This document shows, piece after piece, positions 12,975 to 45,916 of a stretch of DNA of 51,838 nt. The notes beneath the pieces are model-generated. The model saw nothing but the letters and a program-made list of their open reading frames with translations. It searched no databases and was not told where the DNA came from. The position numbers and the translations under genes were made by a program. Location: NCBI GenBank assembly GCA_944391725.1, contig CALXUQ010000004.1, forward strand, positions 1-51,838. The letters run 5' to 3'. This stretch comes from an uncultured Alphaproteobacteria bacterium. GTDB taxonomy: Bacteria; Pseudomonadota; Alphaproteobacteria; RF32; CAG-239. Position 1 is the stretch's first letter, and each line of letters starts with the position of its first letter.

Positions 12975-14960
12975 ATGACATTTTTCAAAAAAGACGACGA
13001 CAAATTACGCAATATGGCCAATGCCATCCGTTTTCTTTGTGTCGATATGATAGAAAAATCCAAATCCGGCCACCCCGGCATGCCCTTAGGCATGGCCGAT
13101 GTTGCCACCGTGCTGTTTTCCAAATATATCAAACTTTGTCCCAAGGCGCCGCGCTGGTTTGACCGCGATAGGTTTGTGCTTTCGGCCGGTCATGGCTCCA
13201 CTTTGCTGTATTCGCTGTTTTATCTAATGGGCTATAAGGATATCACTCTGGAAGATTTGCAAAATTTCCGCCAGTTGGGCTCCAAAACTGCCGGCCATCC
13301 GGAATATGGTCACTTAGGCGGCATTGACATCACCACCGGTCCGTTAGGTCAGGGCTTGGCGTCAGCCGTAGGAATGGCCTTAGCCGAAAGAATAATTGCC
13401 GGCAAATTCGGTAGTGATGTGTGCGATCACTATACTTATGTTATGAATGGTGATGGCTGTCTCATGGAAGGCATTTCGGAAGAAGCCATTTCTTTGGCCG
13501 GTCACTGGAAATTAAACAAGTTGATAGTCTTTTGGGACAACAACAATATTACCATTGACGGCACGGTTGATAGTGCTTCATCTACCGATCAAATCAAACG
13601 TTTTAAGGCTCACGGTTGGAACACCATTTCCATCAACGGTCACAACTATGCCGAGATAGATAAGGCGATTCGCCAAGCTCAAAAGTCATCACGTCCAACC
13701 CTGATTGCGTGCAAAACCACCATTGGCTGGGGCGCCCCGACCAAAGCCGGCACCTGCAAATGCCATGGTTCTCCTTTAGGGAGTGAAGAAGTTGCCGCCA
13801 TGCGTAAAAACTTAAAATGGAAGTCGGCCCCATTTGAAATTCCCTCAGAAATTTTGCAAGCATGGCGCGATGCCGGCCGCCGCAATAAAAAAGAATATTA
13901 TGATTGGGATATGAGAGCCAAAAACAAAGGCCGCGAATTTTTGGATTACATTACCAATGAGTTGCCCAAGAACTGGGATGCCGAGCTCAATGCCTTCAAG
14001 CAACAAGCCGTCAAGGAGGGGCTCAAGGTTGCCACTCGCAAAGCCTCGGAATTATGTCTGGAAAAAATTGTTCCGCACATACCGCAAATTGTTGGTGGTT
14101 CGGCAGATTTGGCCGCCTCCAATTTGACCAAAGTAAAGGGAATGCAAAACATCACCGCCGAGAACTACTGTGGCAATAACATTGCATATGGGATAAGAGA
14201 GCACGCCATGGGTGCGATAATGAACGGTATGGCCCTACACGGTGGCGTTATTCCATACGGCGGCACATTTTTTGTTTTTTCCGATTATCTGCGTCCGGCG
14301 ATAAGGCTGGGAGCGCTGATGGGGATTCGCACCATTTATGTTCTCACTCACGATTCGATAGGAGTTGGTGAAGATGGCCCCACCCACCAGCCGGTTGAAC
14401 ATTTAGCCTCTTTTCGGAGTATGCCCAATGTGTTAATGTTTAGACCCTGCGACGTGGTCGAAACTGCCGAGGCTTGGCAGTTGGCACTGGAAAGTGAAGA
14501 TAGCCCGAGTTTGCTGGCCTTGACCAGACAAGCCCTGCCGATGTTACGCACTCATACCAAAGAAAATCTCAGCGCGCGCGGCGGTTATATTATTTCCGAT
14601 GTCAAAAAAGGCAAAAAACGTCGCGCCACAATTATCGCTACCGGCTCAGAGGTATCTTTAGCGGTTGAAGCACAGAGCAAACTCCGCAAAGAAGGGATTG
14701 AAGTTGCGGTTGTTTCCATGCCTTGCACCGAGCTTTTTGACCGTCAAGATAGCCTTTATCAGGAAGAAGTTTTGGGTTCATGCTTGCGAGTTGCGGTAGA
14801 AGCCGGAGCCAAATTTGGTTGGGAAAAATATGTCGGCAGCAATGGTAAGATTATCGGTATGGATAGTTTTGGTGCTTCCGGTCCCGGAGAAGAATTATTC
14901 AAGTTTTTCCGGATTACTGCCGACGAAATTATCGATACAATCAAAGAAAGTTTGACCTGA
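12975..14960 (+). CDS. tkt: Transketolase
   Basis: SGHPGMPLG, DRDRFVLSAGHGS, GDGCLMEG, GIREHAM, THDSIGVGEDGPTHQP. Confidence 0.97.
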   Translation: MTFFKKDDDKLRNMANAIRFLCVDMIEKSKSGHPGMPLGMADVATVLFSKYIKLCPKAPRWFDRDRFVLSAGHGSTLLYSLFYLMGYKDITLEDLQNFRQLGSKTAGHPEYGHLGGIDITTGPLGQGLASAVGMALAERIIAGKFGSDVCDHYTYVMNGDGCLMEGISEEAISLAGHWKLNKLIVFWDNNNITIDGTVDSASSTDQIKRFKAHGWNTISINGHNYAEIDKAIRQAQKSSRPTLIACKTTIGWGAPTKAGTCKCHGSPLGSEEVAAMRKNLKWKSAPFEIPSEILQAWRDAGRRNKKEYYDWDMRAKNKGREFLDYITNELPKNWDAELNAFKQQAVKEGLKVATRKASELCLEKIVPHIPQIVGGSADLAASNLTKVKGMQNITAENYCGNNIAYGIREHAMGAIMNGMALHGGVIPYGGTFFVFSDYLRPAIRLGALMGIRTIYVLTHDSIGVGEDGPTHQPVEHLASFRSMPNVLMFRPCDVVETAEAWQLALESEDSPSLLALTRQALPMLRTHTKENLSARGGYIISDVKKGKKRRATIIATGSEVSLAVEAQSKLRKEGIEVAVVSMPCTELFDRQDSLYQEEVLGSCLRVAVEAGAKFGWEKYVGSNGKIIGMDSFGASGPGEELFKFFRITADEIIDTIKESLT

Positions 14961-44666: not shown

Positions 44667-44695
44667 TTGACAATGTGGAAGTGTTTTTTTATATT
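44667..44695 (+). promoter_or_regulatory. sigma70 promoter for tRNA-Ala(GGC)
   Basis: TTGACA-N17-TATATT, 12 nt before the tRNA. Confidence 0.65.
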
Positions 44696-44707
44696 AGCTT
44701 TGCTTTT

Positions 44708-44783
<76 letters not shown>

Positions 44784-44850
44784 ATTTTTTATAGCCGTCC
44801 GGTTGGACGGTTTTTTACTAATAATGGTCTGTAAGGGCACATTAGAGTAG

Positions 44851-45220
44851 ATAAGGTTTATGGGGCTGTAGCTCAGTTGGGATGGCTAAGCGAAAAGACC
44901 CCGGTGGGGTTTTTTCGTCTGCAACATCTTGGCTGCCTTAGCGAGCAAAGGAAGCGGCAGCAACTGCGGTGAGCTTAGGCACCCAAGGCGAATGGTTCGC
45001 ATTCGCTCGACCAAATGAATTATTTTGAACGGATATAAGGTTTATGGGGCTGTAGCTCAGTTGGGATGGCTAAGCGAAAAGACCCCGGTGGGGTGTTTTC
45101 GTCTGTAACATCTTGGCTGCCTTAGCGAGCAAAGGAAGCGGCAGTGACTGCGGCGAGCTTAGGCACCCAAGGCGAATGGTTCGCATTCGCTCGACCAAAC
45201 GAGAATTATTTTGAACGGAT
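44851..45220 (+). repeat. Two tandem tRNA-Ala(CGC)-derived repeat units (184 and 186 nt)
   Basis: ATAAGGTTTATGGGGCTGTAGCTCAGTTGGGA at 44851, 45035 and 45221; units nearly identical and each contains GCGAATGGTTCGCA. Confidence 0.92.
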
Positions 45221-45231
45221 ATAAGGTTTAT

Positions 45232-45307
45232 GGGGCTGTAGCTCAGTTGGGAGAGCGAATGGTTCGCAATCATTAGGTCGGGAGTTCAATCCTCCTCAGC
45301 TCCACCA
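45232..45307 (+). tRNA. tRNA-Ala(CGC)
   Basis: GGGGCTG/CAGCTCC acceptor stem with G3:U70, anticodon arm AATGG-TTCGCAA-TCATT, CCA. Confidence 0.93.
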
Positions 45308-45315
45308 AATAAAAT

Positions 45316-45338
45316 GGGTGCCGTAGGCGCCCTTTTTT
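45316..45338 (+). terminator. Intrinsic terminator after tRNA-Ala(CGC)
   Basis: GGGTGCC-GTA-GGCGCCC followed by a T-run. Confidence 0.7.
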
Positions 45339-45355
45339 ATTTGGTTTAGTAGGTA

Positions 45356-45916
45356 CTACTGCAATTTTATTTCGGGAAGTTTCTCATAAGGCTCATTGGG
45401 CTGAAAAAATTCTTTGGTTTTGAGACGGAATAGCTTTGCCAATAATTTCGTCGGAAAACTTTCTTTCTTTTGGTTCCACCGGGTTACAGATGCATTATAA
45501 GAACGTCTTGCTTCCTGCAAATATTCCTCGATTTCGACGGCAATATTCCTCATGGCGGCAAATTCGCGATCCTGCCGCAGTTGCGGAAATTCATTAGCCA
45601 ATGAGAAAATCAGTTTTATCTGATTAAGAATTAGTTTTTCAGCTTTACCTTTTTCGTATGGGGTTGTAATTTCCATGGCGGCCTTTCGCGTATCCATAAT
45701 TTTCTCGAGCATTTGTTTTTTGCCTTCGGTTCTAACATCGGCCAACTCCACCATAACTTTTAGCAAGTTGTAGCGTCGCTCAAGTTGAATATTGATATTT
45801 TCCCAAGCCTGATTGCAGTTGGAGTCTAACTTCATCAGTGCGCCGTGAAGATAGATGAAGTAAAGGGCAATTCCCACAAAAAATATCAATAATAAGATAT
45901 ACATTAAGTTCTCCAT
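45356..45916 (-). CDS. lemA: LemA family protein
   Basis: N-terminal TM, AWENINIQLERRYNL, FPQL, ARRSYN..V..WN...ESFP. Confidence 0.85.
   Translation of the reverse strand: MENLMYILLLIFFVGIALYFIYLHGALMKLDSNCNQAWENINIQLERRYNLLKVMVELADVRTEGKKQMLEKIMDTRKAAMEITTPYEKGKAEKLILNQIKLIFSLANEFPQLRQDREFAAMRNIAVEIEEYLQEARRSYNASVTRWNQKKESFPTKLLAKLFRLKTKEFFQPNEPYEKLPEIKLQ

Follow-up and report, generated by a model that had tools for sequence, protein, structure and literature searches.

What are the two nearly identical units that stand directly in front of the tRNA-Ala(CGC) gene in a contig of an uncultured gut alphaproteobacterium (CALXUQ010000004.1, assembly GCA_944391725.1; its 51,838 nucleotides (nt) are called the window here), and why does each begin as a copy of the tRNA and then depart from it? 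An earlier interpretation made from the letters of the window alone (the sequence-only reading) offered a tRNA-derived non-coding RNA or short interspersed nuclear element (SINE)-like unit co-transcribed with the tRNA, perhaps a processing decoy or regulator, or else the footprint of an element targeting the 5′ half of the tRNA. The last of these alternatives fits our results best. On balance, we consider it probable that the units carry a lineage-specific, non-coding module of ~115 nt, non-autonomous and duplicative, with a strong preference for tRNA genes, which is present here in tandem and probably within the leader of the pre-tRNA.

Tandem Repeats Finder (TRF) detected an array at 44851-45252 with a period of 184 nt, 2.2 copies, 96% matches, no indels and a score of 746. 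Together with ARAGORN and Rfam searches and folding against shuffled sequences, this confirmed two tandem structured units, 184 and 186 nt long and 96% alike, upstream of tRNA-Ala(CGC). Each unit consists, in order, of a copy of the 11-nt leader, tRNA nt 1-21, an insert of ~105 nt, tRNA nt 24-35 onward and an antisense copy of nt ~30-16. The leader and nt 1-21 at each unit start had been recognized before, and the copies of nt 1-21 are identical to the gene at 21/21 positions in both units. On the 3′ side of the insert, GCGAATGGTTCGCA corresponds to tRNA nt 24-37 and folds as GCGAATG-GTTCG-CATTCGC, as had been proposed, and the T-arm and the acceptor 3′ strand are, also as proposed, missing from both units. 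The GACCA described as the end of the unit is indeed there; it is, however, part of an inverted arm, as the segment CATTCGCTCGACCAA copies tRNA nt ~30-16 in antisense, though in diverged form, with a score that 0/200 shuffles reached, and UCGACC in the window is the diverged UCUCCC of this arm. The differences between the two units, thought to fall mainly in loops, do so in part; they comprise also one stem wobble change and changes in the tail. Folded singly, the units gave -68 and -69.5 kcal/mol (z -4.3 and -4.2) and surpassed all 200 shuffles.

The source assembly is a draft in 78 contigs built from short reads, and contigs often stop at repeats of this family, as would suit an assembly artefact or a chance repeat. 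We regard such an origin as practically negligible. The array is not an assembly quirk, because tandem units of the same type occur in three other genomes (G006, G016, G134) and unit-length contigs in two public runs (assembled contigs); moreover, the two units differ at several sites and hence were resolved as separate copies, and the same architecture is found in many independent genomes and metagenome contigs. The unit count in the short-read assembly may be too low.

Unit-length relatives in other genera of the same family share a conserved core of ~115 nt, and their flanks change with the neighbouring tRNA. In an alignment of 11 sequences, a short helix Pa (GAUG/CAUC), which uses the last D-loop bases, encloses GCUAAG, the hairpin P2 and UCUGYAA, and is followed by P3, a long irregular hairpin that contains a tandem G.A/A.G loop and a purine-rich bulge and carries a hexaloop on its GCGG/CYGC stem. 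The first hairpin of the sequence-only reading is retained in this fold, with Pa as an additional closing helix. The apical stem GCAG-NNN-CTGC had to be given up: covariation gives GCGG/CYGC in its place, and the claimed pairing breaks in homologues such as that of G013. In the 11-sequence alignment 94.1% of the cells were paired and double changes were seen at 17/36 pairs; 0/500 shuffles were as good, and slid controls gave 36-48% paired. For 105 distinct copies the paired share was 93.6%, a value inflated by the fitting of this alignment to the model, with double changes at 32/36 pairs and a covariation score of 0.508 vs. 0.145. The insert is not tRNA-derived, as had been supposed, but a structured core with strong covariation, belonging to a dispersed multi-copy family whose members lie mostly far from tRNAs in some genomes. 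The structural conservation that the sequence-only reading expected of homologues is there, as strong covariation across the core copies. When the units and one generic element were scanned alone, no relevant Rfam family was matched at E<=10 (4227 families, RtT RF00391 included). A reading as transfer-messenger RNA (tmRNA) was rejected: RF04321 gave 27.9 bits against a threshold of 47, its partial match covers the 3′ end of tRNA-Ala(GGC) and the opening bases of unit 1, a tag reading frame is lacking, and the source genome has its true tmRNA gene, which is permuted (two-piece), elsewhere (C38:12027-12265, 52.5 bits).

A covariance model, R1, was built from the core and 24 candidates were scored per genome. 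R1 matched in 127/151 genomes of the family of uncultured gut Alphaproteobacteria, representing 22/23 genera; one genus had a match in 0/12 genomes. The 151 genomes held ~737 matches, with up to at least 23 per genome and many at contig ends. In a class-wide sample, matches were obtained in 2/150 other families. A pattern scan of one genome per species gave at least 121 loci, nearly all from metagenome-assembled genomes (MAGs) labelled uncultured gut Alphaproteobacteria. Among the matches listed, R1 recognized 2/11 loci with other labels in a first set, both from one MAG, and 0/6 further loci outside the family. True cores were found on two contigs (L111 and L127) of a MAG labelled Lachnospiraceae, one of them beside tRNA-Leu(CAG), which suggests a mislabelled or mixed bin, or transfer. 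Pattern hits in cyanobacteria, Chloroflexota, Bacteroidota, Melainabacteria, Clostridia, SAR116 and Faecalicatena had no R1 match and were set aside as chance, as were 7/8 viral pattern loci; 1/8 is a true unit beside tRNA-Ala(CGC). A 26-kb IMG/VR contig filed as viral (L208) carries tRNA-Ala(CGC) with a unit upstream, as in the window. Within the source genome the insert occurs at full similarity at this locus only. Two weak extra cores were noted there, C39:14122-14235 (L056, 43.1 bits) and C15:22053-22166 (L057, 25.9 bits), the former lying between direct repeats in which a terminator and, in degenerate antisense form, a tRNA 3′ end are present. The core family was not described in the literature found, subscription journals and supplements being outside the search.

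A tRNA gene lies within 250 nt at 55/95 pattern-derived placements among the matches listed, and the partner tRNAs comprise at least 19 isoacceptors. The upstream type, to which the window's units belong, is built of tRNA nt 1-20/21, the core, tRNA from nt 24 and an antisense copy, and was found at Ala-GGC, Ala-CGC, Val-GAC, Thr-GGT and Glu-CTC. In all of the 26 upstream-type units the 5′ flank reproduces the beginning of the tRNA that lies downstream, over 20-21 nt and with at least 17/20 positions identical. The 3′ flank restarts at nt 24 for 3-10 nt (at least 8 nt in 21/26), with a hairpin beginning at nt 24 in 24/26 units and weak in two Val units. The antisense arm runs past this hairpin to ~nt 22-16, across the site at which the core interrupts the tRNA, and surpasses shuffles in 22/26 units. 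The sequence-only reading had left to checking whether the embedded anticodon-stem segment tracks the neighbouring tRNA, and it does so in 26/26 units.

The downstream type begins with an intact tRNA, its trailer and terminator, followed by an antisense piece of the tRNA 3′ half, the core, and a sense copy of the 3′ end with trailer. It was found at Ser, Val, Glu, Lys, Arg, Leu, Pro, Gly, Phe, Met and Ala tRNA genes. Its junctions vary by locus over nt 58-69, and the antisense pieces end variably, from nt 61 to 69, at microhomology. In both types the core sits inside a long hairpin whose two strands are the target sequence and its inverted copy. The core of the downstream type occurs in either orientation relative to the tRNA, which speaks against a general function dependent on the tRNA transcript. 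The contrast drawn earlier with E. coli repeats, which copy the tRNA 3′ end and lie downstream, holds locally; it does not extend to the family, in which the same core is also placed downstream with a copy of the tRNA 3′ end.

Generic copies form a further setting. For those in the window's genus, a tRNA was present within 400 nt at 0/20. They are closed by a covarying helix of their own and stand next to other hairpin modules; 25/28 face at least one gene 3′ end, and the core is often antisense to neighbouring genes, both according to crude open reading frame calls in which gene orientation was taken from stop-to-stop frames of at least 110 aa. In congeners (L059-L078, L079:6143-6721 and 14510-14872) the core is part of composite intergenic arrays with other hairpin modules. 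The 5′ module of these arrays is a CCCCCTCTT...AAGAGGGGG hairpin, and the 3′ module is a long hairpin whose stem is hypervariable yet pairs perfectly, whose apex is conserved (GCGACAGG..GTACATAGACGTACGTAACTTAGC) and which has the tail CTGTATTAGG. At the position of a full generic element in G001, the source genome carries ~300 nt of other repeat-like sequence (C1:58935-59242), the apex of which resembles the 3′ module (GAGCGTATATAGAAATACGTGCAG). The G001 and G010 loci of generic copies, compared with the source genome for an exact empty site, have flanks too diverged to show one (70-77% identical).

A tree of 42 cores grouped them by genome and lineage, not by tRNA. The CGC and GGC Ala units of G089 were sisters (97/94), the units of G111, G151 and G142 formed one clade (100/96), and the Ala-CGC unit of G016 paired with the Ala-GGC unit of G123. 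The Thr upstream-type cores fell with generic and downstream-type cores, in the other main clade, and therefore the upstream layout arose at least two times. The number of units is also variable: one in G004 and four metagenome contigs, two in the source genome (G000) and G006, and 2.5 in G016. Four congeners (G001, G002, G003, G007) have no upstream unit; a reversed core lies behind their tRNA-Ala, and their two tRNA-Ala genes are divergent. Across the window's genus these genes are tandem in G000, G004 and G006 and divergent in the four others (L236-L239), a rearrangement right at the element-bearing locus. In G001, ARAGORN called a 94-nt 'tRNA-???' with a four-base anticodon ttaa on the minus strand (L236:325-418), adjoining tRNA-Ala(CGC); it may be another interrupted or decayed tRNA copy.

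A metagenome scan with a 24-nt flank string gave 0 matches; a second one yielded 4 contigs, each with a single unit. In a G004-like species, two contigs (L241, L242) carry a second module of 134 nt behind tRNA-Ala(CGC), and a third (L243) represents the empty site. The insertion starts exactly after the terminator T-run and is accompanied by a 56-nt direct duplication (tRNA nt 62-76 plus 41 nt of trailer). The module is GC-rich and not matched by R1; within the insertion, tRNA nt 49-61 are copied in antisense, and nt 49-55 then follow in sense. This shows a recent insertion of such an architecture in the tRNA-Ala(CGC) operon, though not of the R1 core. Weak relatives of the 134-nt module are present in the source genome on contigs C2, C39 and C1.

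The features of the locus are collected in Table 1. The array has Elm1-like and LemA genes as neighbours, which, like the permuted tmRNA gene of the source genome, agrees with the gut alphaproteobacterial taxon. Between 44550 and 45400 the sole promoter-like site is that upstream of tRNA-Ala(GGC), with none in 44696-45400; among relatives, a promoter-like site was seen upstream of the first unit in 6/20 loci and in the unit-to-tRNA spacer in 1/20. As the sequence-only reading had suggested, the position of the units would suit co-transcription with the tRNA.

Table 1. Coordinates of the features of the tRNA-Ala locus in the window.
Feature	Position	Strand	Basis
Promoter-like site TTGACA-17-TATATT of the tRNA-Ala operon	44667..44695	+	
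tRNA-Ala(GGC), intact	44708..44783	+	ARAGORN, Rfam, 62.7 bits
Terminator-like hairpin and T-run behind tRNA-Ala(GGC)	44793..44812	+	
Unit 1, 184 nt	44851..45034	+	
11-nt leader copy, unit 1	44851-44861	+	
tRNA-Ala(CGC) nt 1-21 copy, unit 1	44862..44882	+	21/21 identity
Structured core, copy 1	44876..44989	+	model R1, 126.9 bits
Core copy 1, helix Pa	44881-44884 with 44925-44928		
Core copy 1, hairpin P2	44889-44920		
Core copy 1, long irregular hairpin P3	44929-44986		
Hairpin P5, unit 1 (5′ strand and loop = tRNA nt 24-35; 3′ strand antisense)	44988..45006	+	
Antisense arm CATTCGCTCGACCAA, unit 1, spanning the site where the core splits the sense arm	45000..45014	+	shuffles
Unit 2, 186 nt	45035..45220	+	96% to unit 1
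tRNA-Ala(CGC) nt 1-21 copy, unit 2	45046..45066	+	21/21 identity
Structured core, copy 2	45060..45173	+	model R1, 127.1 bits
Hairpin P5 and antisense arm, unit 2	45172..45198	+	
Third copy of the 11-nt leader, before intact tRNA-Ala(CGC)	45221-45231	+	
tRNA-Ala(CGC), intact	45232..45307	+	ARAGORN, Rfam, 63.1 bits
Terminator-like hairpin and T-run closing the operon	45316..45332	+	

The mobile module that we favour is placed, in the layout observed here, at the border of the D-loop and D-stem in a partial 5′ copy of tRNA-Ala(CGC), where it separates nt 21 from nt 24. The partial copy reaches the anticodon loop and turns back antisense, so that the module branches from a long hairpin of target sequence. 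The two-unit array would have formed by unequal recombination or slippage across the repeated segment of leader and tRNA nt 1-21. The operon promoter is on one side of the units and the tRNA on the other, and no promoter-like site belongs to the units themselves. Their transcript would be a long, structured leader of the pre-tRNA, which RNase P would release by its cut at the 5′ end of the tRNA. The fold would be kept by selection on the given strand, serving propagation or processing of the module and not the function of the tRNA. The weakest step concerns the origin of the junctions, for which we propose, tentatively and with more doubt than confidence, template switching by a polymerase, either replicative or reverse-transcriptase-mediated, instead of a site-specific recombinase. 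It is suggested by the direct and inverted target pieces, the breakpoints at loops and stem borders, and the variable junctions at purine-rich microhomology.

Several observations weigh against the favoured account. In the five high-copy genomes that were searched for enzymes, no mobilising enzyme was found: TnpB, Y1 transposase (RAYT, PF01797) and IS110 recombinase above the cut-off (PF01548) were each present in 0/5, reverse transcriptase (RVT_1) in just 3/5, and the tyrosine recombinases, detected in 5/5, amount in G007 to only two, both Xer-like. No filled and empty pair of sites was found for the R1 core, the polymorphic insertion being that of another module family. The Ala(CGC) units of three genera share the spacer motif AAATTATTTTG, and the unit there may be old and vertically inherited, its flanks kept in step by gene conversion or selection. 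The settings of generic copies (12 convergent, 6 + 7 tandem, 3 divergent) follow no strict orientation rule. P2 resembles an intrinsic terminator on both strands, which is odd inside a leader, and the sole RNA-library evidence is one 214-nt metatranscriptome contig (one unit plus 30 nt, depth 5.4), a weak hint at transcription at best. The inflated paired share of the larger alignment belongs here as well, as do the raw counts of 89 G.U and 118 A.C pairs, which do not favour the given strand. A strand bias emerges only with two doubtful pairs removed (88 G.U vs. 45 A.C, 18 of the remaining A.C at one ill-aligned pair). Stem polymorphisms within one species comprise 3 that are wobble-compatible on the given strand and 1 that is disruptive. 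On these counts and polymorphisms together, selection on the given strand, as RNA or as single-stranded DNA, has moderate support.

Some of these same features would be expected of an RNA element serving the host, that is, a leader or trailer small RNA, or a cis-acting signal for processing, termination or stability on tRNA operons and at other 3′ ends, in which the sense and antisense tRNA arms give processing sites or neutralise the duplicated tRNA pieces. We give this explanation a modest chance. Covariation is strong, and unpaired GCUAAG, UCUGYAA, GAGCAAGG and GCGA are conserved in copies for which the model was the only means of detection; different genera retain the Ala(CGC) unit together with a common spacer, flanks follow the tRNA, most generic copies (25/28) face a gene 3′ end, and P2 is terminator-like on both strands. 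In E. coli, the RrA/B/F repeats are processed small RNAs (PMC8144298). Such a role is, however, difficult to reconcile with a downstream-type core that takes both orientations to the tRNA, with cores often antisense to neighbouring genes, with copy numbers that range from 0 to at least 23 between genomes (one genus 0/12), with copies at contig ends, and with cores homogenised within genomes. A host function as RNA may also coexist with the mobile module. A retroposon-like origin, in which a structured RNA is joined to a pre-tRNA by a template-switching reverse transcriptase or by loop cleavage and ligation and the chimera is copied back, seems to us an outside chance. It would explain the breakpoints in D-, anticodon and T-loops, the snap-back inverted copies, the junctions at microhomology and the fold on one strand, and also the insertion of the 134-nt module at the end of the terminator U-tract, that is, at the 3′ end of the primary transcript. 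A core was located within 1.5 kb of 1/4 reverse transcriptase loci, which is compatible with chance. A 422-aa protein with RVT_1 as its sole domain is encoded in G008 (L213:511-1779) and has relatives in G001 and G009; each of these three genomes has 2-4 copies, and one copy of the gene has a core ~250 nt past its stop codon.

Explanations that rely on recombination or RNA guidance fare worse. A miniature integrative cassette, moved by a tyrosine recombinase (integrase or Xer) at an attachment (att) site inside the tRNA gene and carrying a tRNA piece that restores the gene, would account for the direct repeats of tRNA parts that flank the module beside an intact gene and for junctions in or near the D-, anticodon and T-loops, and Xer-like recombinases are encoded in 5/5 genomes. 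We nevertheless find it improbable. The hairpin behind the core tracks each tRNA and so is not carried cargo if crossover occurred at nt 21/22; junction positions vary (antisense ends nt 61 to 69) and lie at microhomology, inverted target copies are left unexplained, and there is no integrase in or near the units, with G007 holding only its two Xer-like genes. A simple cassette with the nt 21/22 crossover and spread between tRNAs by homologous recombination were both rejected because the hairpin tracks each tRNA. Very improbable, in our estimate, is a guide-type RNA similar to bridge or omega RNA, with the core as scaffold and the tRNA-matching segments guiding a recombinase or nuclease, even though a conserved scaffold, locus-specific flanks and one sense plus one antisense segment to the same target are what it would predict. 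IS110-type recombinases above the cut-off and TnpB are lacking in all five genomes, the matching segments are long (20-21 nt + 8-17 nt) and match adjacent DNA rather than a distant target, no integrase or other protein gene lies in or is linked to the window's units, and there is no Rfam match.

The family represents a new, well-supported structured RNA or DNA motif with hundreds of covarying copies in poorly known small-genome gut Alphaproteobacteria. If propagation through RNA or template switching at tRNA hairpins is true, it would be a new route for selfish non-coding elements into essential genes without destroying them; should the retroposon reading hold, this would be the first SINE-like, tRNA-seeking family of retroelements in bacteria. 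On the practical side, assemblies break at tRNA loci because of the units, which can also lead the annotation of tRNAs and pseudogenes astray.

Among known systems, tRNA-targeting integrative elements share with the units a partial tRNA copy beside an intact gene and breakpoints in tRNA loops; islands and phages, as Williams is said to have described in 2002, have att sites in the anticodon loop, the T-loop or the tRNA 3′ end. The units differ from them in having no integrase within their 184-186 nt, a cargo of ~0.1-0.25 kb, no single att position (junctions nt 58-69), inverted target copies and a module inside the partial copy. Transposing archaeal tRNA introns are related inserts at different positions of different tRNA genes, and tRNA-derived SINEs and chimeric retro-copies are short non-autonomous elements joined to tRNA, template-switching reverse transcriptases being able to make snap-back copies. 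With these the family has in common that it is short, non-autonomous and tRNA-joined, with snap-back-type breakpoints and varied positions in varied tRNA genes. Unlike SINEs, it has no poly(A)-type tail and no RNA polymerase III logic, and reverse transcriptase is present in only the three high-copy genomes mentioned. Unlike in archaeal introns, the interrupted tRNA copies are truncated, which rules out that the insert is spliced as an intron.

Rickettsia palindromic elements, Caulobacter/Brucella CIR and Neisseria Correia elements are likewise multi-copy, intergenic and non-coding, measure 100-150 nt and are predicted to fold as RNA; PMC2229807 depicts the alphaproteobacterial CIR elements as two arms with a linker between them. 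For repeats resembling miniature inverted-repeat transposable elements (MITEs) the mobilising enzyme is mostly obscure too, and the many dispersed copies (up to at least 23 per genome) are a shared property. The core differs in that terminal inverted repeats and short target duplications are lacking: the helix that closes generic copies shows the covariation of an RNA stem, and in place of a 2-10 bp target duplication there are duplicated pieces of 20-32 nt, and of 56 nt in the sister module, the target pieces as a whole measuring 15-56 nt and being both direct and inverted. It differs also in a marked preference for tRNA loops, in conserved unpaired motifs and in compensatory changes that exceed by far what a simple palindrome would show. 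The absence of TnpB, Y1 and IS110 from 5/5 high-copy genomes (other insertion sequence families were not searched) further separates it from MITEs; the lack of a Y1 (RAYT) gene, with PF01797 in 0/5, separates it from REP and REPIN elements, and that of a DEDD recombinase above the cut-off (PF01548, 0/5) from bridge RNA.

The closest counterparts are the tRNA-linked repeats (TLRs) of E. coli. In PMC8144298 these are described as non-coding units of tRNA operons, often tandem and co-transcribed, of mostly obscure function, each with an exact copy of the adjacent tRNA end. The same description covers RtT of tyrT-tyrV and RrA/B/F behind rRNA operons, which are, like the window's units, tandem and tRNA-end-carrying. 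They reproduce 18-19 nt of the tRNA 3′ end and are found on its downstream side, whereas the units of the window stand upstream and reproduce nt 1-21 and 24-35; the latter have neither the 3′-end identity of TLR and RtT RNAs nor a match to RF00391 at E<=10, and the downstream position is found only in downstream-type relatives. Further differences are the antisense copy of the target and the covarying core, which recurs at many dispersed loci and with at least 19 tRNA species. The downstream type, with its core, tRNA 3′ end and trailer, does share the layout of E. coli TLRs. Repeats linked to tRNA are thus not confined to E. coli and occur here with a dispersed, recognisable core at either end of tRNA genes and with signs of ongoing spread, which makes their origin and role, long an open matter, accessible to testing.

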